Assembly: GCA_021647705.1 (NCBI GenBank)
Contig: JAKIUF010000002.1
Span: forward strand, 137,295 to 201,294
Length of the DNA stretch: 64,000 nucleotides
Direction of reading: 5' to 3'
Origin: Gammaproteobacteria bacterium
GTDB lineage: Bacteria > Pseudomonadota > Gammaproteobacteria > SZUA-152
Position numbers and translations under genes: made by a program. Within the stretch, counting starts at the first letter, position 1. Every line of letters begins with the position of its first letter. A model generated the notes under the pieces. It was not told the DNA's origin. It made no database searches and was given only the letters and a program-made list of their open reading frames with translations. Below are positions 994-64,000 of the stretch, piece after piece.

Positions 994-1410
994 TTAACGC
1001 AACAGATTTTTCAGTTCTTCTATTCTTGCAGTATTCAATCGAATGACACAACTGTTTACGGTGGTTACATAAGCAGGTGTTTCCTTCTCGATCTCGAAAG
1101 CCTCTATTTTGCAAGTTCTATCACGGAAGGTAATCCAAGCATCTTGAGCTTCGCTAACTACCGCAATTAATTCTTTGCCTAGTTTTAGGTCAGCCGCATA
1201 AACGCGCTTTGCGCGTTTCTCAAAATTCACAAATTCAGTCAATAGGAGGGCATTCGAATTCATCATCTCCTTATGTACGCAGTCGTCTAATTGAGGGCTC
1301 GTAGTGATATCTGTGCAATCGAGCTCGTCCGCCAGGAAAATGGTCTTCGTAGGCTGAGCCATGCAGGAGGTGGCAGAGAAAACCAGTAAAAAAATGTGCA
1401 ACAACCTCAT
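994..1410 (-). CDS. DUF1311/LprI-like lysozyme-inhibitor family protein (putative immunity protein), signal peptide
   Basis: N-terminal signal sequence; AQDAWITFRDRTC motif characteristic of DUF1311/LprI; overlaps the upstream lysozyme-like gene by 4 nt. Confidence 0.5.
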   Translation of the reverse strand: MRLLHIFLLVFSATSCMAQPTKTIFLADELDCTDITTSPQLDDCVHKEMMNSNALLLTEFVNFEKRAKRVYAADLKLGKELIAVVSEAQDAWITFRDRTCKIEAFEIEKETPAYVTTVNSCVIRLNTARIEELKNLLR

Positions 1411-2042
1411 TTGTTCGCTCCTGAATTCTTAACTGGCTTGCGACTCTTCAAATATTTGACACGATTGCGTCCAGGCTCATATTGCTTTATTGCCGCCGTC
1501 TCATTGATGTATTTAATTAGTTCGTCAAAGTCGTTATTCATGCCGGCCTTCATAGGGTTGGGTCCTTTGGTAAAGCCCTGATAGACAAAATCAACAAGTA
1601 CGTCTCGAATGGCTTGGTCTAGTTTGTTCCACTCAACTCGACTTTTCTCTGTAGCAGTCCATTTATCATAGTTCTGTTTCGCTCGACTTTCGTAATTAGG
1701 ATATATGTTGTCGAACAACTTGACCTGCTGTGCATGGGTTATCTTTCCTATCGTCTTCTTATGCTTCTCTGCGAACTCCTTTGCCTTGGCCCCCTTAAGT
1801 CCAGCTCCCTCGGATAGTGCCTTTGCGGTATTAGAGGGGATCCCAGCTTTAGTCATGTCTTGCTTAACTACAATTTTCGTGCGGTTACCCATGTCGTATC
1901 CTCGCCCGATTGTGACGCCGGAAAGAGCGTTTCCTGGCCAGTGGATGACTCGACTAAAATATTTCGATGTCTCTGCATCATTTCCTTCTGCATCGAATGT
2001 AATCTGCCCCTTTTTAACTTTAGTAGACATTTTTTCTCTCAA
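1407..2042 (-). CDS. Lysozyme-like (T4-lysozyme/GH24-like) protein, putative toxin
   Basis: FDAEGN...GVTIGRGYDMG resembles the T4 lysozyme catalytic DTEG..TIGIGH region; coupled to the LprI-like gene. Confidence 0.45.
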   Translation of the reverse strand: MREKMSTKVKKGQITFDAEGNDAETSKYFSRVIHWPGNALSGVTIGRGYDMGNRTKIVVKQDMTKAGIPSNTAKALSEGAGLKGAKAKEFAEKHKKTIGKITHAQQVKLFDNIYPNYESRAKQNYDKWTATEKSRVEWNKLDQAIRDVLVDFVYQGFTKGPNPMKAGMNNDFDELIKYINETAAIKQYEPGRNRVKYLKSRKPVKNSGANK

Positions 2043-2189: not shown

Positions 2190-4198
2190 GTGTACGCCCA
2201 GCATGGGCATGAACTCAATATAGAAATAGAAAAGAAGACACCCAGTGCGCCGAGATAAATCGGTAGTTAATCAATTGGTGAAAGCCCAATACACAGTAAG
2301 AGCTAGCCACTCGCTGTGGCCCCGAGTCATGAGCTGTTATCGAAAGAGACACAGTTAAGCGTTGACAGGGGAACGTACAGGCTCAGTATTGAGCTCCGAA
2401 ATCACATTGAGAACGTTGACCTTGTTGGGTGAAGGGGAAGACCCTATTGATAACCTCGAAAATGGCAAGAGGTTGTCAAGCTCTCCGGAGTCATAGACCT
2501 GGTGCATGTACGAATGTTAACTACGCGGAACTCGGGAGCCCCTGTGTTTGATCAGCGCCAATCCAACCTCTAGTAGGAGGCAATGGTCGGGTTGAGGAAA
2601 TAAACCAAATAATCTCAACATCAACAAACACAGGGAGTCGGACAAAACCATAGTAGTGAAGAAGCAGGCGAACAAAGAGAGCAAGAGGAAAAAAAATGAC
2701 ATATTTCAATCCCCTTTGCCATCAGCGGAGTCAGTGGAGCGAAGGGTTTTGGCTAAGAGAAAGTTTGAGTAAACCCACCGAGACCTTGACGCAGAGCAAG
2801 GAAGAAACAGGCAGGGCACTGCACAGACTACATGAAGTCGCTAAACGAGATTCCCATCTCACATTCAACAACCTGCTACACCATCTGAGTATAGAAAAGC
2901 TCACACGAGCCTACTATGCGCTCAATCGAAAAGCAGCAAAAGGTGTTGATGAGCAAAGCTGGGACGACTATGGAGAAAACCTCCAGGAAAAGGTCAGCGC
3001 ATTACACACAAAACTGCATACCCAACGTTATCAACCACAACCCACAAAACGAGTCTGGATACCCAAAGCGAGCGGTCAACTAAGACCGATAGGCATCACT
3101 GCCATCGAGGATAAAGTGGTGCAGCAAGCCTTAGTCTGGGTGATGGAGTCGATATACGAAGCAGACTTTCTGGGTTTCAGCTACGGCTTCAGGCCAAATC
3201 GAAACCCACATCAGGCGCTGGACGTTGTCTACATTGCATTGACGGAAAAGAAAGTAAGCTGGGTGCTGGATGCCGACATACAAGGATTCTTCGATCACAT
3301 AGATCATGGCTGGATGATGAAATTCATTGAGCATCGGATCAGTGATAAAAGAATACTGGGACTACTGAAAAAGATACTAAAAGCAGGTGTGATAGAAGAA
3401 GGGAAATGGTCAAAGACGCGGATTGGAACCCCGCAAGGAGCTGTTATATCACCGCTACTAGCGAATATATACCTGCACTACGTCCTAGACCTATGGGCAC
3501 ATCAGTGGCGAAGAAAATACGCGCGAGGTGAAGTCTACATCGTACGATACGCCGACGATTTTGTACTGGGTTTCCAGTACAGAATAGACGGTGAACATTT
3601 TCACCAAGCCCTGATAGAAAGACTGAAATGCTTTGGACTGACATTGCACCCAGAGAAAACACGACTCATTGAATTTGGTCGGTTCGCTGAAAGCAATAGA
3701 AGAGAAAGAGGAGCGGGTAAGCCGGAAACATTTGATTTTCTAGGCTTCACGCACCTGTGCAGCAACAAGCGAAACAATAAAGGATTTAGCGTGCGCCGAC
3801 AGACCATCAGCAAAAGGCTGAGAGCCACGGTAAAAAGGATCAAAGAACAGCTGAAAAGAAACAACATGTTCAATGTTCACCGGCAGGGACGCTGGCTTCG
3901 CAAGGTGATGCAAGGTTTGATTAACTATTATGGCGTACCGGGAAACAGCACCGCGTTGGCAAGGCTGCGAACGGAAATGTGTTGTAACTGGCGAAAGTCA
4001 TTAAGGCGTCGAGGAAACAAAAGGCCGATAAACTGGCTGCAAATGACGAAGTTAATCAACCGCTGGATACCCAAAGTCAGCGTGGTTCACCCATACCCGA
4101 ATCAGCGGCGTTGTGTTTGACTCGAAGCAGGAGCCGGATGCGTTAGTAGCGCAAGTCCGGATCTGCGCCGGAGGCCTGACAAATGAGAACTGTAATGA
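2190..4198 (+). mobile_element. Group II intron (bacterial class C-like; reverse transcriptase without an En domain); boundaries approximate
   Basis: 5' GTGTACGCCCAGCATGGGCATG resembles the Ll.LtrB 5' end GTGCGCCCAGATAGGGTG (an alternative 5' end is GTGCG at 2245); ORF in domain IV; domain V-like GAGCCGGATGCG..CGCAAGTCCGGATC with AGC triad and 2-nt bulge at 4128-4165; sits right after a hairpin. Confidence 0.7.
2696..4120 (+). CDS. ltrA: Group II intron reverse transcriptase/maturase (intron-encoded protein)
   Basis: RT motifs (RPIGITAIEDKVVQQA, FDHIDH, YADDFVLG, TQGAVISPLLANIYL) and X/maturase domain; no C-terminal HNH/En domain. Confidence 0.9.
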   Translation: MTYFNPLCHQRSQWSEGFWLRESLSKPTETLTQSKEETGRALHRLHEVAKRDSHLTFNNLLHHLSIEKLTRAYYALNRKAAKGVDEQSWDDYGENLQEKVSALHTKLHTQRYQPQPTKRVWIPKASGQLRPIGITAIEDKVVQQALVWVMESIYEADFLGFSYGFRPNRNPHQALDVVYIALTEKKVSWVLDADIQGFFDHIDHGWMMKFIEHRISDKRILGLLKKILKAGVIEEGKWSKTRIGTPQGAVISPLLANIYLHYVLDLWAHQWRRKYARGEVYIVRYADDFVLGFQYRIDGEHFHQALIERLKCFGLTLHPEKTRLIEFGRFAESNRRERGAGKPETFDFLGFTHLCSNKRNNKGFSVRRQTISKRLRATVKRIKEQLKRNNMFNVHRQGRWLRKVMQGLINYYGVPGNSTALARLRTEMCCNWRKSLRRRGNKRPINWLQMTKLINRWIPKVSVVHPYPNQRRCV

Positions 4199-4399
4199 AA
4201 AAAAAAATTACAGAGCTTGTGAGTTGGGGCTTTACGGCAACTCAAATGAAAGCTTTGCATAAACCCCTTCCTCATTTACAACAACATGGTTAAAAATTGA
4301 TGCTTTTACCAGACACGGCAAAAAATCGAAAAATTTCCGGCAAACAAACTGGTTTTTTAGATCACAGGCAACAGGAGTCCCTCGCCATCCACCCAAGCG

Positions 4400-5551
4400 A
4401 CCTGAAAATAGAAAAATGAAGAAATGACTGGGTGCTATGTAGGTAAAGGTTGTCTTTGTTTATAAACACACTTTCCCACAGACTGACCTTTCAACCAGCA
4501 CTGACCTAATTGATCAGCAAACTGCCTGATTTTGTCCATTGCGCCCACCGCCCGAAAAAACCGCTGTTCGTAGTGGTTAATCATATCCAGCCAGCCCTGT
4601 TGCTCAATCCCCAGCCTGGACAAAATGGGAGGCAGGTTATCGGAAATAGCCCCGATTTTATCATCACGAACTGCCCGGCCGGTCCAGTCCACCAACTCCA
4701 GATAATCCGGGAATGAAAAAGCGATGCCTTCAGGCTGGTTGTTGCGTTCGTCACCGATGAAATCAACCAGTCTGACAGGTGTTTGAGCTATTTGTGATGG
4801 GGCTTGATCACGTTCAGGGGTTGAGGCTTGATGAGTTCGTATTCGCGCCTGAATCGATGTGTAATCGGATGCTTCCGGGCTGGGGTTGATGCCAGCCCGT
4901 ATAGGGTTAAGGTCCACATAGCTCATACAGGTGAGCAAGGCCTGTTCATCCAGCAAAGCCTGACTTTTGTAACGCCCTTCCCAGAATCGTCCCGTGCAGC
5001 GGTCTTCTGCATTGGCCTGTCGGGCGAGAGATTCATTTAAACAGCGCATGAACCAGCCCAGATCCATCAAACGGCTACGCCATTCCTGTACAAGCTCAGC
5101 AACCAGTTTCTTCTCTGCCTTACCCTGTCGCTCTCCTTTCTTCATTTGATCAATTAACAGCGGTGCCTTGAATAACGTGGTCCAGTGTTCAATCACTTCA
5201 TCATCAGACCATGCCACAGCTTGAGGCTGATTGATGTGCAGAACCAAATGGTAATGATTGCTCATGACAGCGTAGGCACAGACATCGATAGAAAAAACGT
5301 CGGCCAGTTCAGCGAGCTTATCCACTACCCATTGTTTGCGGTGTTCATAACTTTGTCCAGAGAACTCGTCTTTTCCGCAGAGAAAGGCGCGGCGAACACA
5401 GCGCGAGATGCAATGGTAATAAGGGGTTGAATCCAGGCAGACCTGGTTTTTGCGAGGTTTTGGCATCCGTGCCTCCTTCATGTGAATTGTACGCCTTGCA
5501 ATCTAACGAGGATCAGCCAGAGTGTCAATTAATTGATGGGTGTCTCTATTT
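4400..5551 (-). mobile_element. IS200/IS605-family-like insertion sequence (Y1 HUH transposase), copy 1; left boundary uncertain
   Basis: Right end defined by identity with the inverted second copy at 63644 onward (GATGGGTGTC terminus); carries one transposase ORF. Confidence 0.55.
4435..5481 (-). CDS. tnpA: HUH (Y1) transposase, IS200/IS605 or REP-associated tyrosine transposase-like
   Basis: HYHLVLH (HUH) motif, GRYKS catalytic tyrosine region, YHCISRCVRRAF N-terminal motif; 348 aa; second copy starts at 63729. Confidence 0.7.
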   Translation of the reverse strand: MKEARMPKPRKNQVCLDSTPYYHCISRCVRRAFLCGKDEFSGQSYEHRKQWVVDKLAELADVFSIDVCAYAVMSNHYHLVLHINQPQAVAWSDDEVIEHWTTLFKAPLLIDQMKKGERQGKAEKKLVAELVQEWRSRLMDLGWFMRCLNESLARQANAEDRCTGRFWEGRYKSQALLDEQALLTCMSYVDLNPIRAGINPSPEASDYTSIQARIRTHQASTPERDQAPSQIAQTPVRLVDFIGDERNNQPEGIAFSFPDYLELVDWTGRAVRDDKIGAISDNLPPILSRLGIEQQGWLDMINHYEQRFFRAVGAMDKIRQFADQLGQCWLKGQSVGKCVYKQRQPLPT

Positions 5552-5944
5552 TCTCTATTTTCAAGTTGTCCAATTGCCCATCTTCTGATCCAGAGCATAA
5601 AGTACCATAAAAACAATATGTTGTAAGTGTTATATTTATTCGAAAAAGTTAAATCTCTTCGGGTTTTATTCCCCGCCGCTTGCGGCGTAAGGTTGGAAAA
5701 AACCAAGGGTAGCTATATACGAAGCTTTATGAAAGCTATCAGCTGGCACCGTTTGTAAGAATACCCCGCTTTCGCGTAGCGAAAGTCGAGCTTAAGCGAG
5801 AGGGCTTGCCCCGGGGATTTTTATTCTCAACCTGTGGTTGATTTTTCGAAACTAGGGAATGCCCCATTTTGTCAAATATTATTGTGTTATGGTTTTGCTT
5901 TCATAGCTGGTTATTTAGCCAGTTTAATTTTACAGGAGGTGGCC

Positions 5945-6442
5945 ATGGATTCGGCAGTTTCTTCTTCTCCCTTTTTACGTTCTGTTGTTGAGGCTATTTG
6001 CGTGCGACATTACAGCATCCGTACGGAAAAGGCTTATATTAACTGGATCAAGCGATTTATTCTTTTTCATGACAAACGTCACCCCGCTAAAATGGGAGGC
6101 GTGGAGGTTGGGGATTTTTTGACCGATTTGGCGATGAATCGACAGGTGTCGCCCAGTACACAGAATCAGGGGTTAAATGCGCTGAATTTTTTGTACAAGG
6201 TGGTTTTGGAGCAACCATTGGGGGATGTGAAAAATTTGGTGCGGGCAAAGAACAAGCGTAAATTACCGGTGGTATTAACGGTTGATGAGGTGAGGGCGGC
6301 GGTGTTGCGTGAATTGAATGGGGTGCAGTGGCTGGCAGCTTGTTTAATGTATGGTTCTGGCTTGCGATTGATGGAGTGTTTACGTTTGCGGGTGATGAAT
6401 CTTGATTTTTTGCACCGCGCAGTTTATGTGCGCATATGGTAA
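5945..6442 (+). pseudogene. intI: Integron integrase intI, N-terminal about 165 aa fragment truncated by MITE copy 2
   Basis: [51 protein letters not shown] matches the N-terminal half of IntI and the right-hand intI; ends abruptly at the repeat at 6453. Confidence 0.65.
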
Positions 6443-6452
6443 AGAAAAAACC

Positions 6453-6499
6453 GGGTCAGAGTAATACTTACTAATATTAGAAACAATTGCTCTCTGACC
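6453..6499. repeat. Palindromic MITE-like repeat, copy 2 (inverted relative to copy 1), abutting the truncated intI
   Basis: GGGTCAGAGTAATACTTACTAATATTAGAAACAATTGCTCTCTGACC flanked by A-run and T-run. Confidence 0.7.
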
Positions 6500-6562
6500 T
6501 GGGTTTTTACGCCACAAAATGAAATCGATCGTGCCTGCTCCCCTTGGTCTTTATAGACGCTG

Positions 6563-6820
6563 CTATCTATTTTTGACCAATTTATTATGATACAGATCTT
6601 CAATGGGGAAAATCATTGTGTAATCATCCCAGTTTAAATTACCATCAATAATTTCAAACTTCAAAAACTCATCAATTGACTTATATTTTTCATAATCAGG
6701 ATGTCCACTTGAAAATATGAAAATAGAAAAATCTACATATGCATGATGACCATCAGAAAATTCAATATCTAATATATGACTAGTTTTATGTTTAGCTGAT
6801 TTTACCAATAATTCTGACAT
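6563..6820 (-). CDS. DUF2442-family small protein (partner of DUF4160)
   Basis: 85 aa; overlaps the upstream DUF4160 gene; typical two-gene DUF4160/DUF2442 module. Confidence 0.5.
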   Translation of the reverse strand: MSELLVKSAKHKTSHILDIEFSDGHHAYVDFSIFIFSSGHPDYEKYKSIDEFLKFEIIDGNLNWDDYTMIFPIEDLYHNKLVKNR

Positions 6821-7118
6821 TACGCACCTTTTGTGTTACATACGTCGGAGAAACATGCATTTTTTTAACAAAATAGTCTACCCATTTTTCTACAATATCT
6901 TCTGCATAGCAATTTACAAACCCTTCAAATTCTTTACGTTTTTTTGGCTCTAAGCCAGGACCTTTATCTTTTAGTACTATTTTATTAATTTTTCCATTTA
7001 AAAAATGAATCTCTGCTTTGGTTTCTTTGCCATTGTGTTTTCCATGAATATGTATAGGTTCGTGTTCATTGCTGTAAAAGAAAAAAACAATCCCAAAGTA
7101 TTCGTATATTTTCGGCAT
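6792..7118 (-). CDS. DUF4160-family small protein
   Basis: MPKIYEYFGIVFFFYSNEHEPIHIHGKH N-terminus is the DUF4160 signature. Confidence 0.55.
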   Translation of the reverse strand: MPKIYEYFGIVFFFYSNEHEPIHIHGKHNGKETKAEIHFLNGKINKIVLKDKGPGLEPKKRKEFEGFVNCYAEDIVEKWVDYFVKKMHVSPTYVTQKVRNVRIIGKIS

Positions 7119-7309: not shown

Positions 7310-7323
7310 AAGATGAAAAACTC

Positions 7324-7377
7324 GGGTTAGAGAGCAATACTTATTAATATTAGAAACAATTGCTCTCTCTCTGACCC
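7324..7377. repeat. Palindromic MITE-like repeat, copy 3
   Basis: A-run + GGGTTAGAGAGCAATACTTATTAATATTAGAAACAATTGCTCTCTCTCTGACCC + T-run. Confidence 0.7.
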
Positions 7378-7480
7378 GGGTTTTTCTTTTAGAGACATAT
7401 TGAATTTCTAGTATTATTGCTAACGGCCAAGCTCAGCCTCGCCGTTTTTTGGCGTCGACTGGAGCGCATGGTTCGCTGCG

Positions 7481-7879
7481 TTATTCAAAGTAGCTCCGTA
7501 AACGCTGTGCCAATTTACTGGACTGTTTGTCGTATTGCTGTTGATGCGTGGTGATTGCTATTGGGCCGATGCGCGTCACCCCACGCGCTTTCAGGTGCTG
7601 CGCCAAGATATCTATAACTTTTTTCCCGTAGCCTCGACCCCGAAATGCTGAATCGATCCACCAGCCAGGTTGAACGTCATTTAGGCCGGATGCCTCAACT
7701 AGCGCAACCAACCGACCTGATGTTTCCTCGAATAAAGCGAAAAGTCCAGATTCATAAGCAGCCCAGACTTGCGGCGGCCCCAAATCATTTCGGTGCTCTG
7801 ACAAAGATAGCCGCTCTTGAATCAACTTTGACTGGGCTGGTGAAAGTACGGATTTCTCAATCATGACTAAGCATCTCAT
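7481..7879 (-). CDS. GNAT-family N-acetyltransferase
   Basis: IDSAFRGRGYGKKVIDILAQHL acetyl-CoA binding motif (R/Q-x-x-G-x-G/A). Confidence 0.75.
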   Translation of the reverse strand: MRCLVMIEKSVLSPAQSKLIQERLSLSEHRNDLGPPQVWAAYESGLFALFEETSGRLVALVEASGLNDVQPGWWIDSAFRGRGYGKKVIDILAQHLKARGVTRIGPIAITTHQQQYDKQSSKLAQRLRSYFE

Positions 7880-46529: not shown

Positions 46530-46596
46530 TCAGCGGTCTTTATTGGTCCCGCAATTTTCCTGATTGCGGGCAAGATGTTAGAATTTCCCACGTTTG

Positions 46597-49848: not shown

Positions 49849-49924
49849 TGGCAAGTGCGCTACCCGGTAGGCGGTCTCACTGTTAATGAGGTGTATGCCG
49901 GTTCGAGTCCGGCCTTGCCAGCCA
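49849..49924 (+). tRNA. tRNA-Asn(GUU)
   Basis: Hand-folded cloverleaf: acceptor TGGCAAG/CTTGCCA, anticodon arm TCTCA-CTGTTAA-TGAGG, T arm GCCGG-TTCGAGT-CCGGC, ends GCCA. Confidence 0.65.
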
Positions 49925-49953
49925 ATTAACTGTCTGAAAAGGAGGTATAGAAA

Positions 49954-50142
49954 ATGAAGGTGATGAAGCTAGAGAGACGATTTGAATCATTAATCGCGAC
50001 GATGAATGTACCTCAAACCCGAAAGAAAGGAACTGCAATTAATGCATTGTGGTTTTTAAGGGATGGGGCAATTGCTAACAGAACACATAAAAATGTTCAT
50101 GAAGCCAGTGAGATTGCGGTGAAATTAGCTAACGCTCATTAA
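49954..50142 (+). CDS. Hypothetical 62-aa protein inside the tRNA array (strong SD)
   Basis: AAAGGAGG 8 nt upstream of ATG. Confidence 0.4.
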   Translation: MKVMKLERRFESLIATMNVPQTRKKGTAINALWFLRDGAIANRTHKNVHEASEIAVKLANAH

Positions 50143-50169
50143 CGAAGAATGAATTTATTAAGCAGTATA

Positions 50170-50242
50170 TGCACCTGTAGCTGAGTCGGAATAGCGCGAC
50201 ACTGAAAATGTCGAAACGGTCGTTCAATTTGTCCCAGGTGCA
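50170..50242 (+). tRNA. tRNA-Phe(GAA)-like, probably degenerate (imperfect T-stem, no encoded CCA)
   Basis: Perfect acceptor GCACCTG/CAGGTGC, D arm, anticodon arm CGACA-CTGAAAA-TGTCG; T-arm pairs poorly. Confidence 0.4.
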
Positions 50243-50250
50243 TCAGATAT

Positions 50251-50327
50251 GGCCCGTTAGCATAGTGGTTGGATGCAAACGATTGTCAGGCGTGAGATCG
50301 CGGATTTAAATTCCGCACGGGCCGCCA
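50251..50327 (+). tRNA. tRNA-Asp(GUC)-like, degenerate (weak anticodon stem, T-loop TTTAAAT)
   Basis: Perfect acceptor GGCCCGT/ACGGGCC plus GCCA, D arm GCAT/ATGC, loop TTGTCAG gives anticodon GTC. Confidence 0.35.
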
Positions 50328-50586
50328 GTAGCGCCGCAGGTAATGACAGTAAACAACTTGTGAGCACGGCTGAAATATAGCCAAGGTGTGAACCAGAGGA
50401 CTTGGCCATTTGTTAATCCTCAGTTGGTTGTTTAACCAAAAAGTAGGTATGGCGCAGTTATTGATGAAATGGGGCGACCATTACTTGCGGTTTTTTTTAA
50501 AGTCACATTCGCTAAGCTGGCAGGGTTCTCAATCAATAATCGAGGGATCCCTGGTTGAGGCTTAGGATGTGGCACCAATGATTAAT

Positions 50587-50663
50587 GGTGAAAGTAGCTT
50601 AATGGGTAAAGCTTCTGATTGTGAATCAGATAGATGCCGGATCATCCCCGGTCTTTCACCCCA
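50587..50663 (+). tRNA. tRNA-His(GUG) with G-1, C73 and encoded CCA
   Basis: G-1 + GTGAAAG/CTTTCAC acceptor, anticodon arm TCTGA-TTGTGAA-TCAGA, C73, CCA; T-loop ATCATCC is non-canonical. Confidence 0.6.
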
Positions 50664-50696
50664 TTATTATTTAAATAATAAAAGGGAAAAGAAATT

Positions 50697-50772
50697 GGGT
50701 TGCTAGCTCAACTGGCAGAGCAATCGCCTTTTAAGCGATAGGTTCGGGGATCGTTCTCCCGGCAGCCCACCA
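50697..50772 (+). tRNA. tRNA-Lys(UUU)
   Basis: Acceptor GGGTTGC/GCAGCCC, D arm GCTC-AACTGGCA-GAGC, anticodon arm ATCGC-CTTTTAA-GCGAT, ACCA end; T-loop ATCGTTC unusual. Confidence 0.6.
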
Positions 50773-50927
50773 AACATCACATGTTACATCATTGTAATGT
50801 GATAACAGCGTTGAAACAGCACTGCATTGTTCAGCGGTTCAGGTTCTGTATGCCTGGCCTGCGCACCAACACTTAGCGAAAGCAATCGTACGGTGTGTAC
50901 AGATCAATTGTGGTGATTTCGACATCC

Positions 50928-51001
50928 ACCAGGATAGCTCAGTTGGGTAGAGCAACTGATTTTTAATCAGTTTGTCGCAGGTTCGATTCCTGCTCCAGGC
51001 A
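50928..51001 (+). tRNA. tRNA-Lys(UUU)-like with two acceptor-stem mismatches (possible pseudogene or att remnant)
   Basis: D arm GCTC-AGTTGGGTA-GAGC, anticodon arm ACTGA-TTTTTAA-TCAGT, canonical T arm GCAGG-TTCGATT-CCTGC; acceptor ACCAGGA/TCCAGGC mismatched; no CCA. Confidence 0.35.
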
Positions 51002-58915: not shown

Positions 58916-59849
58916 CTATCCGGACAAAACCGCACCCAATGGACTCACCACCGCATTTCCGCCCCGGTTCAGTACATGGGTATAGATTTGAGTGGTACGC
59001 ACATCTTTATGCCCCAACTGTTCCTGCACCGTTCGGATATCCATGCCCCGCTCCAGCAAATGCGTGGCAAAAGAATGACGCAACGTATGACAACTGGCGG
59101 GCTTGTGAATCCCCGCCTTGCGAATCGCCTTCTCATCAAAATGATGCCGCCGTTCCACGCCCGAACGAGGATCAATACTGCCACGCCCATTCCGTTGGCG
59201 CATTGGGATATTTTCGTGCCAGAGCATGGGGAAGGTAAACACTGCCAAAACCATCTGCCAAATCTTTATCGTGCGTTTGTCGTCGATTTTCCAGGTGTCG
59301 TTGCAAAGGCACAATCAACTCATCTGACAGCGTCACTACCCGGTCTTTCCCTCCTTTAGCGTTATGCACATAAATCGCACAGCGCAAAAAATCAAGATTC
59401 ATCACCCGCAAGCGTAAACATTCCATCAATCGCAAACCGGAACCGTACATCAAACAGGCCGCAAGCCAATAAAGACCATCCAGCCCTTGTAGAACCGCTT
59501 GTACCTCTTCACGCGTCAACACCACCGGAATCTTTTGCCGTGTTTTGGCGCGCGCCACCCCTTTCAAGCCCTCAATGGGCTGGTCCAACACCACGCGATA
59601 AAGAAACATCAAGGCATTAAAAGCCTGATTCTGTGTACTGGGGGCAACATTTCGATCTACCGCCAAATGCGTCAAAAATGCTGTTACTTCCCGTGCCCCC
59701 ATTTCACGAGGATGCTGTTTGTTATGGAAATAGATAAACCGCTTCACCCAGCCGCTATCAGCTTTTTCGGTTTTCCGGCTGTAATGACGCACACGAATTG
59801 CATCCGAAATCGAACACAGGAAAGGCGAAGAATAATTTGTCGAATCCAT
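58916..59849 (-). pseudogene. intI: Integron integrase intI with apparent frameshift near 59175-59200
   Basis: N-terminal 225-aa ORF (..[17 protein letters not shown]) and overlapping C-terminal ORF (..[50 protein letters not shown]) in different frames; IntI-specific extra domain present. Confidence 0.8.
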
Positions 59850-60305
59850 GACAGTGCTTCCTTAAATGATGCTGATGTTTTGTACAGTAATTTTTATAAT
59901 CCACAAATGCAAGTGGAATATTTTCCCACTTTGGGGTATTTCTACATTCAATATCCTGGCTACACCCCAATATTCCGCAGGGTAAAATGTCCTGAAAATT
60001 CCGACTATCTTATTGAGTTTAATAATTTTTTCAAAAAAATGAAAAAACAGAGCGAACAAAAAACAAACAAATTCACACTAAAAAATACCCCGTGTGATAT
60101 CCCCAAAATGTCTTATTTGCCCGTTTCAATATCCAGCAGGCTCAGGTCATTTTATACTCACCATGAAAATTACCCCGGTAATAAGTCATTGATTATTTAG
60201 TGGGTTTATTAGAGTATTGAGCGGAGCCGGGAATCATCGGCAAATAAATTATTGGATTTTGGGGCGGGGTTATCCCCCCACTCTGGGGTCCATTAAGCGT
60301 TAGAT
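59850..60305 (+). promoter_or_regulatory. attI/Pc region of the right-hand integron, ending in the GTTAGAT recombination core (60299-60305)
   Basis: Upstream of and divergent from intI; GTTAGAT fits GTTRRRY and is the reverse complement of the R'' core (ATCTAAC) of the first attC. Confidence 0.6.
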
Positions 60306-60320
60306 TTAAAAGAGAAATAT

Positions 60321-60826
60321 ATGATAGGAAGCTGGGAGATGTCATCGCTATCAGAACCCAAGCGATACTTTGAGTACTCAAAGGCATATATCCAAGCGAG
60401 CCTCGATATATGTAACAGCATGATAAGTGACAAAAATCGAGAAACATGGCCTAATGCTAATGTTGCATTAATGCTGGCAGCACATTCCGTCGAGCTATTT
60501 CTTAAAGGAGCAATACTCTTAAAGTCAAATAAAGCATGGGGGCACACACTTGAAAATTTAAATTCAACATATCATGATATTTATACTGAAAAAAACTTCA
60601 GTTTAACTGCCCTTTTAGAACCGAATATATAGAAATATCAGAAGAAGAGCAAAGGACTTTAAGAAAGAAAGAGCCTCAACAAAGCATACTTTTCCGCTAT
60701 CCTGTAAAAAAACCGGGAGTTGAATGGAATGGAGTATTTGGGTTTGAACCAAATGATTTTATCGATATTCTCAATGATTTAAATGCTAATTATAATAAGT
60801 TGATTTATAAACATGAAAATAATTAA
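60321..60826 (+). CDS. Hypothetical cassette protein; apparent frameshift near 60615-60632 splits it into two frames
   Basis: ORF 60321..60632 continues in another frame to 60826; 3' end overlaps the protease gene start. Confidence 0.4.
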
Positions 60827-61757
60827 AAATATATTACTAGTCATATTGCCCTTAATACAATCACATGTATATGCACTAGACTCAGGAGAAATATATAAGA
60901 AAAGCATTGAATCTGTGGTTACAGTAGTATCCTTAGATAAAGACAACAAAATATTAATGACAGGAACGGGCTTCTTTGCAAAACATAAAAACCTAATCGC
61001 AACAAATTACCATGTCATTAAAAACACGCACCATCTAAAAATAATAACCTCAGATGATAAGGAGCATAATATTTTTGATATATGCGTTGAAAACGCATCA
61101 AATGACATCGCAATATTACGATCAATTCCTGAAAGACAGCCTTTATCTTTAAATAAAAACACACCAAGTATTGGTGATAAAATTATTTCCATTGGTAGCC
61201 CAATGGGATTATCAGGCAGCTTATCAACTGGCGTTATTGGTGCCATTAGAAAGAATGAAGGGCATAAATATTATCAAATAACATCACCGATATCGCCAGG
61301 CAGTAGTGGTGGCCCTGTTATTGATGAGAACGGACTCGTTCTTGGTATGACAACATTTTATATTAAAGGCGCTCAAAATTTAAATTTTGCAATACCATCC
61401 CCACGAATTTCAACTTATCTAAATACAAGCATGGAATGTTTAAAGAAAAGCAATACGCAGCCTGACACTGCATTGATAAATAAATATTCAGAATCTCTCT
61501 ACGAAAATTACTTAAAAAATAAAGACAGCTACCCTTCAGAAAGGCAAAATATAAAACCTGACGCATACCAATGTATCGCGCAACTCATCAGTGATTTTGG
61601 TACCAAAGAAGAAATTATCGCTCTAAACAATATGTTTATTAATAAGAGTAAATCATTAGATGTCCAGCTATCTCCATATAGAAAAAACATACTCAAATCA
61701 TTAATTAATAACTCAAGTAATAATGAGTGTCTTGCAACAAAAAAATCTAACAATTAG
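60813..61757 (+). CDS. Secreted trypsin-like (S1/DegP-core) serine protease with about 120-aa C-terminal extension of unknown function
   Basis: Signal peptide; catalytic His (TNYHVI), Asp (NDIAIL), Ser (SPGSSGGPV); no PDZ domain. Confidence 0.7.
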   Translation: MKIIKNILLVILPLIQSHVYALDSGEIYKKSIESVVTVVSLDKDNKILMTGTGFFAKHKNLIATNYHVIKNTHHLKIITSDDKEHNIFDICVENASNDIAILRSIPERQPLSLNKNTPSIGDKIISIGSPMGLSGSLSTGVIGAIRKNEGHKYYQITSPISPGSSGGPVIDENGLVLGMTTFYIKGAQNLNFAIPSPRISTYLNTSMECLKKSNTQPDTALINKYSESLYENYLKNKDSYPSERQNIKPDAYQCIAQLISDFGTKEEIIALNNMFINKSKSLDVQLSPYRKNILKSLINNSSNNECLATKKSNN

Positions 61758-61801
61758 CTCAAGCGGACGTAAAAAACACGCCGCTTAGCAAGGCGTTAGG
61801 G
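61745..61801 (+). other. Integron attC site 1 (57 bp): R'' ATCTAAC ... R' GTTAGGG
   Basis: Imperfect inverted repeat gctcAAGCGGacgt / cacgCCGCTTagc between the cores; R'' is the exact reverse complement of the attI core. Confidence 0.65.
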
Positions 61802-61808
61802 GTTAAAA

Positions 61809-62321
61809 ATGTCATTCAATCTTCCAGGCGTTAAACAAGATAGTGATATAGAATCGCTTTTCAAATCTGTCGGTTTTATTGTCGTGCAGTGGGGACACTG
61901 TGAACAGTCTCTGGAGTTGCTAGTTAATACATTGCACCGACAGTTTAGCGGCAGCAAATTACCAAAAAGGAAAAAGATGCCAAGGCAGCTATCTTCAAAA
62001 CTAGATTTTGTTAAAGAATGTGCATTAGGCATACCCGAATTATCTCCGTTTCAAGATGAACTTGAGAGATTGGTTCATGATTTCGAGGACATTAAGCAAA
62101 CTCGCCATGATTTAATACATGGAGCAATAACAGATGATCCAGTTATGGACGGCGTGTTTACCTTCATAAGGCTTCAGGCTGATTCAGATATTCATGAAGT
62201 AAAGCATTTTCAGTACGACTTGCATGATTTTCCAAGAATTTCAAAAATTCTCTTGCGTCTGGGAGCTGATTCACCAAAAGTGGCTCGTCGTATTTTTGAA
62301 GCAAGTCAAAAGATGCCATGA
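61809..62321 (+). CDS. Hypothetical cassette protein (170 aa)
   Basis: Between attC1 and attC2, co-oriented with the cassette array; no recognisable motif. Confidence 0.5.
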   Translation: MSFNLPGVKQDSDIESLFKSVGFIVVQWGHCEQSLELLVNTLHRQFSGSKLPKRKKMPRQLSSKLDFVKECALGIPELSPFQDELERLVHDFEDIKQTRHDLIHGAITDDPVMDGVFTFIRLQADSDIHEVKHFQYDLHDFPRISKILLRLGADSPKVARRIFEASQKMP

Positions 62322-62427
62322 TTTCAATTGAAATAGCATCTGCTGAAAGTGGAGTGTCGCCGTCCCAATGCCAAAGAAGGCTGCCAATCCAGTCTGTTAA
62401 TAGTTCTCTGTTGGTCATAAAATTCAC

Positions 62428-62502
62428 CCCTAACAAACGCCTAGAGACCGACATATTTTGTCACTGCGTTCCAAAATATTCGGCTCAGGCTTAACGTTAT
62501 GC
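62428..62502 (+). other. Integron attC site 2 (75 bp): R'' CCCTAAC ... R' GTTATGC
   Basis: R'' is the exact reverse complement of attC1 R'; internal imperfect palindrome AACGCCTAGAGACCG / CGGCTCAGGCTTAACGTT. Confidence 0.65.
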
Positions 62503-62515
62503 CAAAAGGAAATGA

Positions 62516-62724
62516 ATATGATAAATAAATATCGTGTGCATCTTGAAACAATAGACCCAGATAATGAAGAGCAGGATATTCATTATTCAACATTGGTTGA
62601 AGCCACAAACGAAAACGAGGCCATTGAAATAGCAAAAGATAGACAAGGAGAAGAAAGTCCAGAATTGCCTCGTAGTAAAACATGGGCTTGGCATGCTTAC
62701 AAAACAAATGAAGCCATTGATTAG
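62516..62724 (+). CDS. Hypothetical small acidic cassette protein (69 aa)
   Basis: SD aaaggaaATGaatATG; the longer listed ORF from 62458 begins inside attC2, so the downstream ATG is preferred. Confidence 0.45.
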
Positions 62725-62741
62725 TTATATAAATAAAAGCA

Positions 62742-62775
62742 GGCATCGAATGATTGATGCCTGCTTTTAAAAAGT
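62742..62775. terminator. Bidirectional hairpin terminator between the convergent small ORF and the symE-like gene
   Basis: AAAAGCAGGCATC gaatgatt GATGCCTGCTTTT perfect 13-bp stem with A and T runs. Confidence 0.65.
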
Positions 62776-62778
62776 AAG

Positions 62779-63039
62779 TTATTGTGGAGTGATGATTAAT
62801 CGATTTTGAGTAACTTGTACACAAATAGGAAGCCCAATAACAAAGCCAGATTCTTCAAGCCATGTTCCTTTGAGTAAAATAAAAGGAGTTTTAGGGTTGC
62901 CTTTATGAGGCGCGGATTTTAAGCAATAGTCACGATGCCCTTCTCGAACTATAATATGACGTTTATTCATGATTATTTCCTTGTGCAAATGGTTAAAAAC
63001 CACCACCGCCAAGGTACGAATCTTAGGGTGGTGGGCCAT
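62779..63039 (-). CDS. symE: SymE-family type I toxin-like protein (SOS-induced toxin family)
   Basis: ..RDYCLKSAPHKGNPKTPFILLKGTWLEESGFVIGLPICVQVTQNRLIITPQ resembles the E. coli SymE core [42 protein letters not shown]. Confidence 0.55.
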   Translation of the reverse strand: MAHHPKIRTLAVVVFNHLHKEIIMNKRHIIVREGHRDYCLKSAPHKGNPKTPFILLKGTWLEESGFVIGLPICVQVTQNRLIITPQ

Positions 63040-63260
63040 ATGAGGTTCGTACTACCGCGCACAAGGAACGGCCACCCGAAGGTGCCCCATACAGCCCACC
63101 GTAAAAGGGGGCAAGCCACAAAAAAAGACGCTGGCTACAATGTAGGCGTCTTTCAGGTGGCACCTTGTGTCTTGCGGGGTACGAATCCCGGCCTGATTTA
63201 CATCAAGCAAATCAACTGTAATTTAATGAGTTGGCTCTGTCAACATCGTGCCAAAATATG

Positions 63261-63351
63261 GCATAACACGGCGCTCCACCTGACTGCCAAAAGCTGCGCT
63301 GCTCGTACCTCGCTCTGCAACTTTTGGCAGCCAGTGAGCTAGGAGTTATGC
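63261..63351 (+). other. Integron attC site 3 (91 bp): R'' GCATAAC ... R' GTTATGC
   Basis: R'' is the exact reverse complement of attC2 R'; internal inverted repeat CTGACTGCCAAAAGCTGCG / CTGCAACTTTTGGCAGCCAG. Confidence 0.65.
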
Positions 63352-63375
63352 AACAAAACGAAAGGAGGAAACACA

Positions 63376-63645
63376 ATGGTTAATTTTGTAAAATTATGGA
63401 ATAGCCACCCAACCGTAGAATCATTTATAGATGATTTCCCATGTAAGAAAAATGGCAAGAAGGCATTTGACAATCAGTGTGCAATTCGCATTGGAGTGGC
63501 ATTCGAAAAAACTGGTGTCAACCTTAAGTCATTCAAAGGTGCCAAATGTTGGCATAGTCATAAGCCAGCACATATTTTGCGCGCAGAAGAAATAGAAAAT
63601 TGGCTAAAAGGTCCATTTTCGCCTTTTAAAAACATAACAGAATAA
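63376..63645 (+). CDS. Tae4-like amidase effector N-terminal fragment, truncated by IS insertion
   Basis: NQCAIRIGVAFEKTG resembles the Tae4 catalytic-Cys region NACPIRMSYVLNATG; 89 aa against about 160 for full Tae4; the stop codon is supplied by the IS terminus. Confidence 0.4.
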   Translation: MVNFVKLWNSHPTVESFIDDFPCKKNGKKAFDNQCAIRIGVAFEKTGVNLKSFKGAKCWHSHKPAHILRAEEIENWLKGPFSPFKNITE

Positions 63646-64000
63646 AATAGGACACCCATCAATTAATTGACACTCTGGTCGATCCTCGTTAGATTGCAAG
63701 GCGTACAATTCACATGAAGGAGGCACGGATGCCAAAACCCCGCAAAAATCAGGTCTGCCTGGATTCAACCCCTTATTACCATTGCATCTCGCGCTGTGTA
63801 CGTCGTGCCTTTCTCTGTGGCAAAGACGAGTTCTCCGGCCAAAACTACGAACACCGGAAACAATGGGTTGTCGATAAACTCGCTGAATTAACCCGTGTTT
63901 TTTCTATCGACGTTTGTGCCTACGCTGTCATGAGTAATCATTACCATTTAGTCCTGCACATCAATCAGCCTCAAGCTTTGGCATGGTCTGATGATGAAGT
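63644..64000 (+). mobile_element. Second copy of the IS200/IS605-like element, inverted relative to copy 1, continuing beyond the window
   Basis: 63652-63728 is the reverse complement of 5481-5549; transposase ORF from 63729 almost identical to 4435..5481. Confidence 0.7.
63729..64000 (+). CDS. tnpA: HUH (Y1) transposase, partial (runs off the window)
   Basis: MPKPRKNQVCLDSTPYYHCISRCVRRAFLCGKDEFSGQNYEHRKQWVVDKLAEL.. near-identical to the copy-1 transposase. Confidence 0.7.
   Translation, partial: MPKPRKNQVCLDSTPYYHCISRCVRRAFLCGKDEFSGQNYEHRKQWVVDKLAELTRVFSIDVCAYAVMSNHYHLVLHINQPQALAWSDDE

Follow-up and report, generated by a model that had tools for sequence, protein, structure and literature searches.

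A small gammaproteobacterial chromosomal integron that has probably lost its own recombinase

The question addressed here is whether the right-hand end of a 64,000-nt stretch of DNA from a Gammaproteobacteria bacterium (assembly GCA_021647705.1, contig JAKIUF010000002.1, positions 137,295 to 201,294; this whole stretch is called the window) carries an integron, with an integrase gene (intI), an attI site and cassettes ending in attC sites, and whether such an integron could still recombine. An initial annotation had described a defective intI, an attI and a four-cassette array ending at 63651, with AT-rich cassettes, no standard resistance gene and recombination cores chained as exact reverse complements, which was taken to mean that the cassettes were captured one at a time; it proposed folding the attC bottom strands, searching with an attC covariance model and comparing the cassettes with those of related genomes. 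Our analysis points, with a probability of about 0.9, to a small chromosomal integron without a working recombinase of its own, in which three cassettes are intact and a fourth is truncated. The anatomy of the locus, the family memberships, the conservation boundaries and the covariation between RNAs and their targets were established directly.

Core sites, attC hairpins and attI

The recombination cores formed three exact (7/7) reverse-complement pairs, GTTAGAT at 60299 with ATCTAAC at 61745, GTTAGGG at 61795 with CCCTAAC at 62428, and GTTATGC at 62496 with GCATAAC at 63261, such that, in each of cassettes 1 to 3, the closing R'' core was the reverse complement of the opening core. Each of the six core 7-mers occurred only one to five times on the + strand of the window: GTTATGC was present at 62496 and 63345, and the CCCTAAC at 62428 was unique in the 64 kb. 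With TAAC and GTTA held fixed, the chance of such a match is about 1/64 per junction, or about 4e-6 for three junctions.

The bottom strands of attC1, attC2 and attC3, folded with DNA parameters, gave z-scores of -4.53, -4.15 and -4.22, respectively, and none of 200 shuffled sequences was equally stable. All three hairpins consisted of a terminal R-box stem, an unpaired spacer of 4-5 nt, an L-box stem and a variable top, with single-base bulges that were confined to the 3' (R''/L'') arm (attC1: T35, G42; attC2: G51, T56, T60; attC3: G72, G75). In attC1, six paired bases separated the bulged T from the bulged G, and three more pairs and a spacer of 5 nt led on to GTTAGAT, an arrangement like that of the classical aadA7 attC.

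An independent covariance model, R1, was trained only on attC sites of other genomes (n = 32), with the window sequence excluded. In 80 integron loci of other genomes, the region upstream of intI was scanned crudely for hairpins of the form TAAC...GTTA; this yielded 96 array-side candidates, of which 32 short ones were aligned to build R1. RNAalifold gave no consensus structure for this training alignment, and a hand-drawn R-box/L-box structure was then evaluated by pair counts: 81% of the cells were paired, compared to 21-48% with slid partners, and 6 of 8 L-box pairs changed on both sides. When the window was searched on both strands with filters off, the top three matches were exactly attC1, attC3 and attC2, with exact ends and all on the + strand (scores in Table 1). 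The next-best matches, of 19.3 and 12.4 bits, were both in the left-hand integron region described below. In 84.5 kb of related loci R1 returned only four matches with E <= 0.1, none of them outside the array side of intI, and the model is therefore specific.

The position of attI was defined by comparison with seven related genomes. BLAST homology extended from intI through the 450-nt spacer and ended at 60302-60304, inside GTTAGAT, with an identity of 89% for the closest relative (locus L014) and 72-78% for the other six. The left half of the site, GGGGTTATCCC..CACT..GG.G.CCATTAAGC|GTTAG, was kept in L004, L008, L014 and others. Past the attI core the sequence differed in every related genome, and the relatives' cassettes followed the same chain rule, with GTTAGGC/GCCTAAC in L008 and GTTAGCT/AGCTAAC in L007. 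Judged by sequence comparison, the end of homology inside the attI core is the strongest evidence of cassette exchange at this very point.

The G+C content of the cassettes was 33-43%, compared to 49% for the core and 50% for intI, as had been proposed in the initial annotation. Its chain of cores was likewise recovered, with all six 7-mers in place, as was its attI at 60299, and the folding, the covariance model and the comparison with related arrays that it had suggested gave bulged hairpins with extrahelical bases, the window's top three matches, and different cassettes under the same chain rule. The view that cassettes were captured one at a time holds as the standard inference from that rule, but it is not something that the sequence itself displays.

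Table 1. Features of the right-hand integron (window coordinates)
Feature	Position	Strand	Description
intI pseudogene (integron integrase)	58916-59849	-	two frames: 59172-59849 (225 aa) and 58916-59179 (C-terminal part)
LexA-box-like palindrome CTGATGTTTTGTACAG	59872-59887		23 nt upstream of intI start codon
attI	60250-60305	+	core GTTAGAT 60299-60305; crossover between G60299 and T60300
Cassette 1	60300-61795	+	two genes, 33.5% G+C; starts TTAGAT, ends with attC1
Cassette 1 gene A, HEPN-fold protein gene	60321-60826	+	frameshifted near 60605-60632
Cassette 1 gene B, trypsin-like serine protease (314 aa)	60813-61757	+	Pfam Trypsin_2, 76 bits
attC1	61745-61801	+	57 nt; R'' ATCTAAC, R' GTTAGGG; R1 41.9 bits, E 2.5e-6
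Cassette 2	61796-62496	+	40% G+C; one open reading frame (ORF), 61809-62321 (170 aa)
attC2	62428-62502	+	75 nt; R'' CCCTAAC, R' GTTATGC; R1 20.8 bits, E 0.053
Cassette 3 (composite)	62497-63345	+	forward 70-aa ORF 62512-62724 and inverted RNA-toxin module
Bidirectional terminator-like hairpin	62734-62769		14-bp stem, then T run; between forward ORF and SymE gene
SymE-family toxin gene (63 aa)	62779-62970	-	Pfam SymE_toxin PF08845, 45.9 bits, cut-off 29
C4-type antisense RNA	63024-63106	-	Rfam RF01695, 59.1 bits, gathering score 45; 53 nt upstream of SymE start codon
isrK-like RNA / a1b1-like decoy element	63121-63208	-	Rfam RF01394, 38.3 bits (gathering score 50), E 6.6e-6; ends in intrinsic terminator
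Promoter-like site TTGACA-17-TACAGT	63215-63243	-	10/12 matches; would serve inverted module
attC3	63261-63351	+	91 nt; R'' GCATAAC, R' GTTATGC; R1 32.1 bits, E 2.5e-4
Cassette 4 remnant	63346-63636	+	first 87 codons of Tae4-family amidase gene (ORF 63376-63645); no attC
1.31-kb repeat, start	63644-64000 (on to ~64954, past window)	+	341-aa Y1/RAYT-like transposase; marks array end

The integrase gene and the end of the array

The frame-corrected IntI scored 424.8 bits against the integron integrase family TIGR02249 (cut-off 265). The orthologues in five related loci (L005-L009) were intact, with 327-328 aa, and an intact orthologue aligned end to end with VchIntIA (PDB 2A3V; 315 residues, 354 bits). 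The closest relatives of the integrase were found in metagenome-assembled genomes (MAGs) that bear the labels Gammaproteobacteria, Chromatiales or Ectothiorhodospiraceae; several come from hydrothermal or deep-sea samples. Compared to the intact orthologues, intI had a 26-nt deletion between short AGTA repeats, which removed the residues VFPSSRR and shifted the frame, and a 24-nt in-frame deletion, which removed AIQRAVKQ. The first lesion falls between the Trp and DP..RRHH residues, which in the 2A3V work are reported to form the pocket for an extrahelical attC base. Judged from these two deletions, intI is dead, in line with the defective gene of the initial annotation. Related intI genes were found to be broken independently, by a stop codon in L004 and by frameshifts in L014 and L016.

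The LexA-box-like palindrome upstream of intI had one mismatch to CTGT-N8-ACAG and was located at the same position as the LexA-like boxes of relatives (CTGTTATTACATACAG in L008 and CTGATTATTTATACAG in L004). Because the count of such matches in the window was not above chance, it is only the position and conservation of this box that speak for it.

At the distal end, the Tae4 match of cassette 4 (Pfam PF14113; 35.6, threshold 27) covered only profile positions 1-54 of 125. Its residues 1-87 could be aligned to a homologue of 151 aa, in which they correspond to residues 1-83; full-length relatives mostly had 141-170 aa. From 63638-63644 onward the sequence was 87-91% identical to an inverted copy at 4244-5552. 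The transposase encoded in this repeat scored 40.5 bits against the NCBIfam REP-associated tyrosine transposase family (cut-off 80) and below threshold against Pfam Y1_Tnp; it was absent from the other 80 integron loci. Core genes (MscS, OmpA and ThiC) followed the repeat, and the covariance model found no attC within 10 kb downstream of the array, in a locus (L001) that reaches about 10 kb past the window end. Thus, of the four cassettes initially annotated, three were complete and the fourth was only a 5' remnant without an attC, cut at 63636-63644 by the transposase-bearing repeat, which begins just short of the array end proposed earlier (63651). The junction between the Tae4 gene and the repeat was identical in two other samples (L002 and L003), and hence is fixed in the population. 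The 3' half of cassette 4 may have been lost by an insertion followed by a deletion, or by recombination between the inverted repeat copies.

The second copy of the repeat (4244-5552, - strand) is also a 1.31-kb unit, and the two copies encode Y1/RAYT-like transposases of 341 and 348 aa. Each copy adjoins an integron and carries GTTAGAT 40 nt before the start codon. Their divergence was too high for recent transposition, and the 58 kb that separate them could be inverted if the two copies recombined. A homology between the proximal end of the repeat and the right-hand attI was considered and rejected, as only CGTTAGATT and CACTCTGG were common to both; the left intI-to-repeat spacer and the right intI-attI spacer were not homologous. 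An inversion between the repeat copies that had once joined cassette 4 to the left array was not supported: the R'' of a hairpin at 2095-2185 was CCATCAAC, compared to the expected GCATAAC, and the GC skew was uninformative.

These data bear on four other explanations of the locus. That the core complementarity is a low-complexity coincidence and that there is no integron has practically no probability: an AT-rich region raises the frequency of TAAC and GTTA words, and no positive evidence was found, whereas three 7/7 matches, the hairpin z-scores, the independent model, the adjacent integrase gene and the comparative attI boundary all count against it. It is very improbable that 63632-63694 is a degenerate fourth attC, that the transposase gene is a fifth cassette and that the array continues. 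The heptamer ACATAAC at 63632 matches the R'' expected for cassette 4 (GCATAAC) at 6 of 7 positions, and the canonical core GTTAGAT lies 56 nt downstream, at 63688. However, this segment did not fold (z -0.5, with 57 of 200 shuffles as good) and had no covariance-model match at E <= 10; ACATAAC falls in the last Tae4-homologous codons and the junction, and from 63644 on, GTTAGAT included, the sequence is repeat sequence common to the copy at 4244-5552, the other flank of which is unrelated. No attC was found after the transposase gene, and the candidate site was rejected.

Slightly less probable again is an integron that is still self-sufficient, with the intI frameshift bypassed by programmed frameshifting, or present only as an assembly error, and integrase being made. 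The catalytic-domain residues past the frameshift are well conserved (100% coverage of the C-terminal motifs, including IYTHV) and the LexA-box-like site is kept; yet the lesion is a deletion rather than a one-base slip, its seven lost codons are conserved ones that lie between the Trp and the integron-integrase-specific DPRSG..RRHH segment, eight more codons are lost in the second deletion, and the independent inactivations in relatives indicate that decay is common in this lineage. We regard as equally improbable a mobile integron of the class 1-5 type that landed in the contig on a transposon or plasmid. The two copies of the transposase-bearing repeat and the other mobile elements in the window would fit such an arrival, as would the different contexts of intI in more distant relatives. 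In contrast, the class 1 IntI1 equivalog (NF011946) scored only 273 bits, below its cut-off of 435; no tni/Tn402, resistance, qacE or sul genes were present; no match was found among 72,556 plasmids; intI lies between xthA and kef both here and in its closest relative (L014); and the intI-attI block is conserved vertically (72-89%) in the seven related genomes.

Several observations weigh against our own reading of the locus as a chromosomal integron that lost its recombinase. The array is tiny and its attC lengths are unequal (57, 75 and 91 nt), unlike the classical large sedentary arrays, and attC2 combines a low score (20.8 bits, E 0.053) with bulges in a non-standard pattern. A crude scan found no sigma-70-like site of at least 9/12 on the + strand between 59850 and 60299 that could be the cassette promoter (Pc) reading into the array. 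The synteny around intI is common only to the closest relative; three other context groups were present among the relatives. Finally, the window comes from a MAG, and faulty assembly could account for the single-base frameshift in cassette 1, although it is unlikely to account for the 26- and 24-nt deletions in intI.

Cassette cargo and the inverted SymE module

In cassette 1, genes A and B overlap by 14 nt, as they do in an unrelated array on the metagenome contig L090, in which the same gene pair (83% identity) forms a single cassette bounded by attC matches and followed by a second such pair. The frameshift in gene A is a further correction to the initial annotation. The gene B protein has an N-terminal signal-peptide-like segment and is similar, at the domain level, to the protease part of PADLOC RT-Protease_XI; a PADLOC scan gave only such domain-level protease matches. 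In L090 itself, two consecutive pairs of HEPN-fold and trypsin-like protease genes occupy 2942-5947 of one metagenomic integron array, with attC matches on both sides of the first pair (2809-2925 and 4367-4462) and none found after the second.

The cassette 2 protein belongs to an unnamed family and has a confidently predicted structure (pLDDT 92) with a weak resemblance to HEPN proteins; a Foldseek search of this model against the PDB gave nothing significant. Residues R99, H100 and H104 were invariant in the family, with R99 and H104 spaced as R-x4-H, whereas the family of cassette 1 gene A had an invariant R126 with no His within 4-6 residues, and so no recognisable Rx4-6H. The HEPN four-helix fold was found, with a Pfam HEPN score below threshold, and the cassette 2 protein is a probable HEPN-like protein. 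Its homologues elsewhere follow a small ORF among toxin-antitoxin genes, mostly without flanking attC sites. Searches of the cassette cargo gave no resistance genes, as the initial annotation had noted.

Cassette 3 combines a forward ORF with an inverted module in which an isrK-like element, a C4-type antisense RNA and a SymE-family gene follow one promoter-like site (Table 1). The R1 search found no attC between the two halves. The SymE homologues carry the NCBI name "SymE family type I toxin", and the order isrK-like element, C4 and SymE was kept in 4/4 homologous loci, from Candidatus Thiodiazotropha MAGs and metagenomes (SymE 68-81% identical). In these loci C4 scored 62-67 bits and the isrK-like element, at the same place, 35-51 bits, and an attC match was located just upstream on the opposite strand in 4/4 (two of 37-39 bits, one of 26.5 and one weak, of 12.6 bits with E 0.77). 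TTGACAG and the -10 hexamer of the promoter-like site were kept in 5/5 loci.

The C4 loop UUCCUUGUGC and the Shine-Dalgarno region of SymE, GCACAAGGAA, were complementary over 10 nt without a mismatch, and the 5' end of the first C4 stem begins with GGU. Across five loci, a C4 triplet (ACG, UCC or CUC) covaried with the triplet CGU, GGA or GAG in the SymE leader, and the triplet of the isrK-like element changed in step with the downstream target triplet. A tblastn search of phage genomes with the SymE protein found no P1-like phage, and our literature search found no paper mentioning both C4 antisense RNA and SymE.

The composite cassette layout was also present in L092, L093 and L095. The inverted module was the attC-proximal half in each case (L092 2140-3600, L093 2150-3573, L095 56-1520, and 62497-63345 here), and the forward partner gene varied (AbiJ_NTD4, DUF4145 and a 235-aa unknown; a 70-aa ORF here). 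The L092 SymE cassette adjoins an intI fragment.

Because the Xanthomonas symE cassette (compared below) and the tandem isrK and C4 annotations on record for Xylella have already been reported, the SymE module is of a known kind, and the covariation between C4 and SymE is a modestly interesting by-product. A broader proposal, which we put forward tentatively and consider rather doubtful, is that isrK-like/C4/SymE is a portable self-regulated toxin module that is attC-proximal in composite integron cassettes, always inverted and beside a variable forward gene, with at least three mutually exclusive RNA specificity types (ACG, UCC and CUC). If so, the module would be an addiction or exclusion device stabilising particular cassettes or arrays and might couple to a defence-like forward gene, which would exceed the bare co-occurrence of symE and sRNA-Xcc1 in Xanthomonas. 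A C4 RNA with covarying specificity would also give a concrete, testable mechanism for the "divergent regulation" that was only suggested for the Xanthomonas symE cassette. Of the by-products of this work, the evidence for control of SymE cassettes by a P1-type C4 RNA is the most useful.

From these data we infer past recombination, an order of capture, toxin activity and RNA repression, as follows. IntI would have recombined the folded bottom strand of the attC of a circular cassette with attI, cutting between G and TT, such that an inserted cassette has the final six bases of its own R' core at its start and the complementary R'' at its end; a cut at this place would produce the observed core chain. 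Three cassettes would have been inserted in this way and remain intact. From the fourth, which is distal and hence probably the oldest, the 3' half and the attC would have been lost where the cassette meets the 1.3-kb transposase-bearing repeat. Then or meanwhile, intI would have been inactivated by its two deletions, which would leave the array frozen unless an integrase acts in trans. The cargo appears to be of a toxin or conflict type: a HEPN-fold gene, now frameshifted, whose partner encodes a secreted trypsin-like protease, another gene for a probable HEPN-like protein, an inverted SymE gene with a promoter of its own that would be restrained by a phage-P1-type C4 antisense RNA pairing with its ribosome-binding site, and a dead fragment of a Tae4 amidase gene. 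Such cargo agrees with the current picture, in which chromosomal integrons store genes for toxins, immunity and defence.

This degraded chromosomal integron is an ordinary example of a well-known kind of element. Through it, the decay of an integron is well documented in one further case, from an uncultured lineage of marine or vent-type Gammaproteobacteria: the integrase is dead, attI is intact and the distal cassette is truncated. It also makes cassette turnover visible at a comparatively defined attI crossover point.

The left-hand region and comparison with known systems

A second integron-integrase fragment (5945-6442, + strand; residues 1-161, cut at ~6445) is ~65% identical to the right-hand IntI and has its own LexA-box-like site just upstream (5920-5935). 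It faces away from the right-hand integron, and thus two integrons bracket ~54 kb. A lineage-type attC (7418-7486, - strand; 19.3 bits) directly follows a GNAT acetyltransferase gene (7481-7879, - strand), and its location on the "wrong" side of the intI fragment suggests a rearrangement of the left array. A ~60-nt palindromic repeat resembling a miniature inverted-repeat transposable element was present in three copies (882-943, 6446-6513 and 7314-7376), two of which bracket a DUF4160/DUF2442 (DhiT/DhiA-like) toxin-antitoxin pair (6563-7118, - strand) that interrupts the left intI.

At 994-2042 (- strand), the left-hand array encodes a pesticin-like lysozyme toxin (211 aa) and then an LprI-type lysozyme inhibitor (138 aa), an apparent toxin-immunity pair. 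Directly after the long attC-like hairpin at 2095-2185 there is a group II intron (2190 to ~4250, + strand; Rfam group-II-D1D4-6, 164 bits) with a reverse transcriptase/maturase gene (2696-4120; TIGR04416, 364 bits), in the orientation opposite to the minus-strand cassettes; this resembles the class C introns that target attC sites. Another hairpin, at 567-672, is followed by the 5' end of a second intron, which is truncated (666-880). Elsewhere in the window, six tRNA genes (Asn, Phe, Asp, His, Lys and Lys; 49849-51001) lie in an AT-rich stretch of 40-45% G+C, with a tRNA-Met gene at 46596, and this cluster may be a remnant of an island or prophage.

The right-hand integron belongs with the VchIntIA-type chromosomal integrons, such as the Vibrio cholerae superintegron, by integrase family and by layout, with a divergent intI, attI and the cassettes on the other strand. 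Bottom-strand attC hairpins with extrahelical bases and toxin-antitoxin-type cassettes with their own promoter are likewise common to both. In contrast, there are three complete cassettes and a remnant here rather than tens to hundreds, the attC sites are heterogeneous, with no uniform VCR-like repeat, and intI is a pseudogene. A classical sedentary chromosomal integron has a long array, homogeneous attC sites and a fixed chromosomal site within a clade; with three attC sites of different lengths, the array described here is neither long nor uniform. CALIN, an IntegronFinder term that goes back to Cury et al. in 2016, denotes attC clusters without an integron integrase. The right-hand array likewise has no working integrase of its own, but because it still adjoins an intact attI and an intI pseudogene that can be recognised as such, its state is intermediate between a complete integron and a CALIN.

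HEPN proteins encoded in integron cassettes were described previously (Anantharaman et al. 2013, PMC3710099; PDB 3jrt). Profile searches of PDB sequences with both HEPN-like families found no match, 3jrt included, and the gene A product differs from those proteins in having no recognisable Rx4-6H motif and in being paired with a secreted protease. In Xanthomonas chromosomal integrons, intI is deleted or has early stop codons in many strains, and the most widespread cassette contains symE and an upstream sRNA-Xcc1, both inverted and not under Pc (bioRxiv 10.1101/2025.06.18.660453). Cassette 3 has the same layout in a different lineage; the RNAs here score as Rfam C4 and isrK-like, the RNA there is annotated as sRNA-Xcc1 and may be of the same type or another, and here the SymE module shares its cassette with a forward ORF.

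In E. coli, SymR is encoded antisense to symE and overlaps its 5' end (PMC1891008). A small RNA that would act on the translation-initiation region of a SymE-family toxin gene is predicted here as well, but it is encoded in tandem on the same strand, with a short loop complementarity. The immI region of phages P1 and P7 has the order a1b1 - c4 - a2b2 - icd - ant (PMC5320573). As in immI, C4 is encoded upstream of its target, with which it would be co-transcribed, copies of the target are found both upstream (the isrK-like element) and downstream of C4, the first stem opens at its 5' end with a GGU that matches the GGW motif of the RNase P site, and one loop would cover the ribosome-binding site with a second segment providing specificity; the RNA specificity types of the module parallel the immunity specificity of P1 and P7. 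Unlike immI, the gene controlled here would be that of a SymE-family toxin rather than icd/ant, and the module resides in an integron cassette rather than in a prophage.

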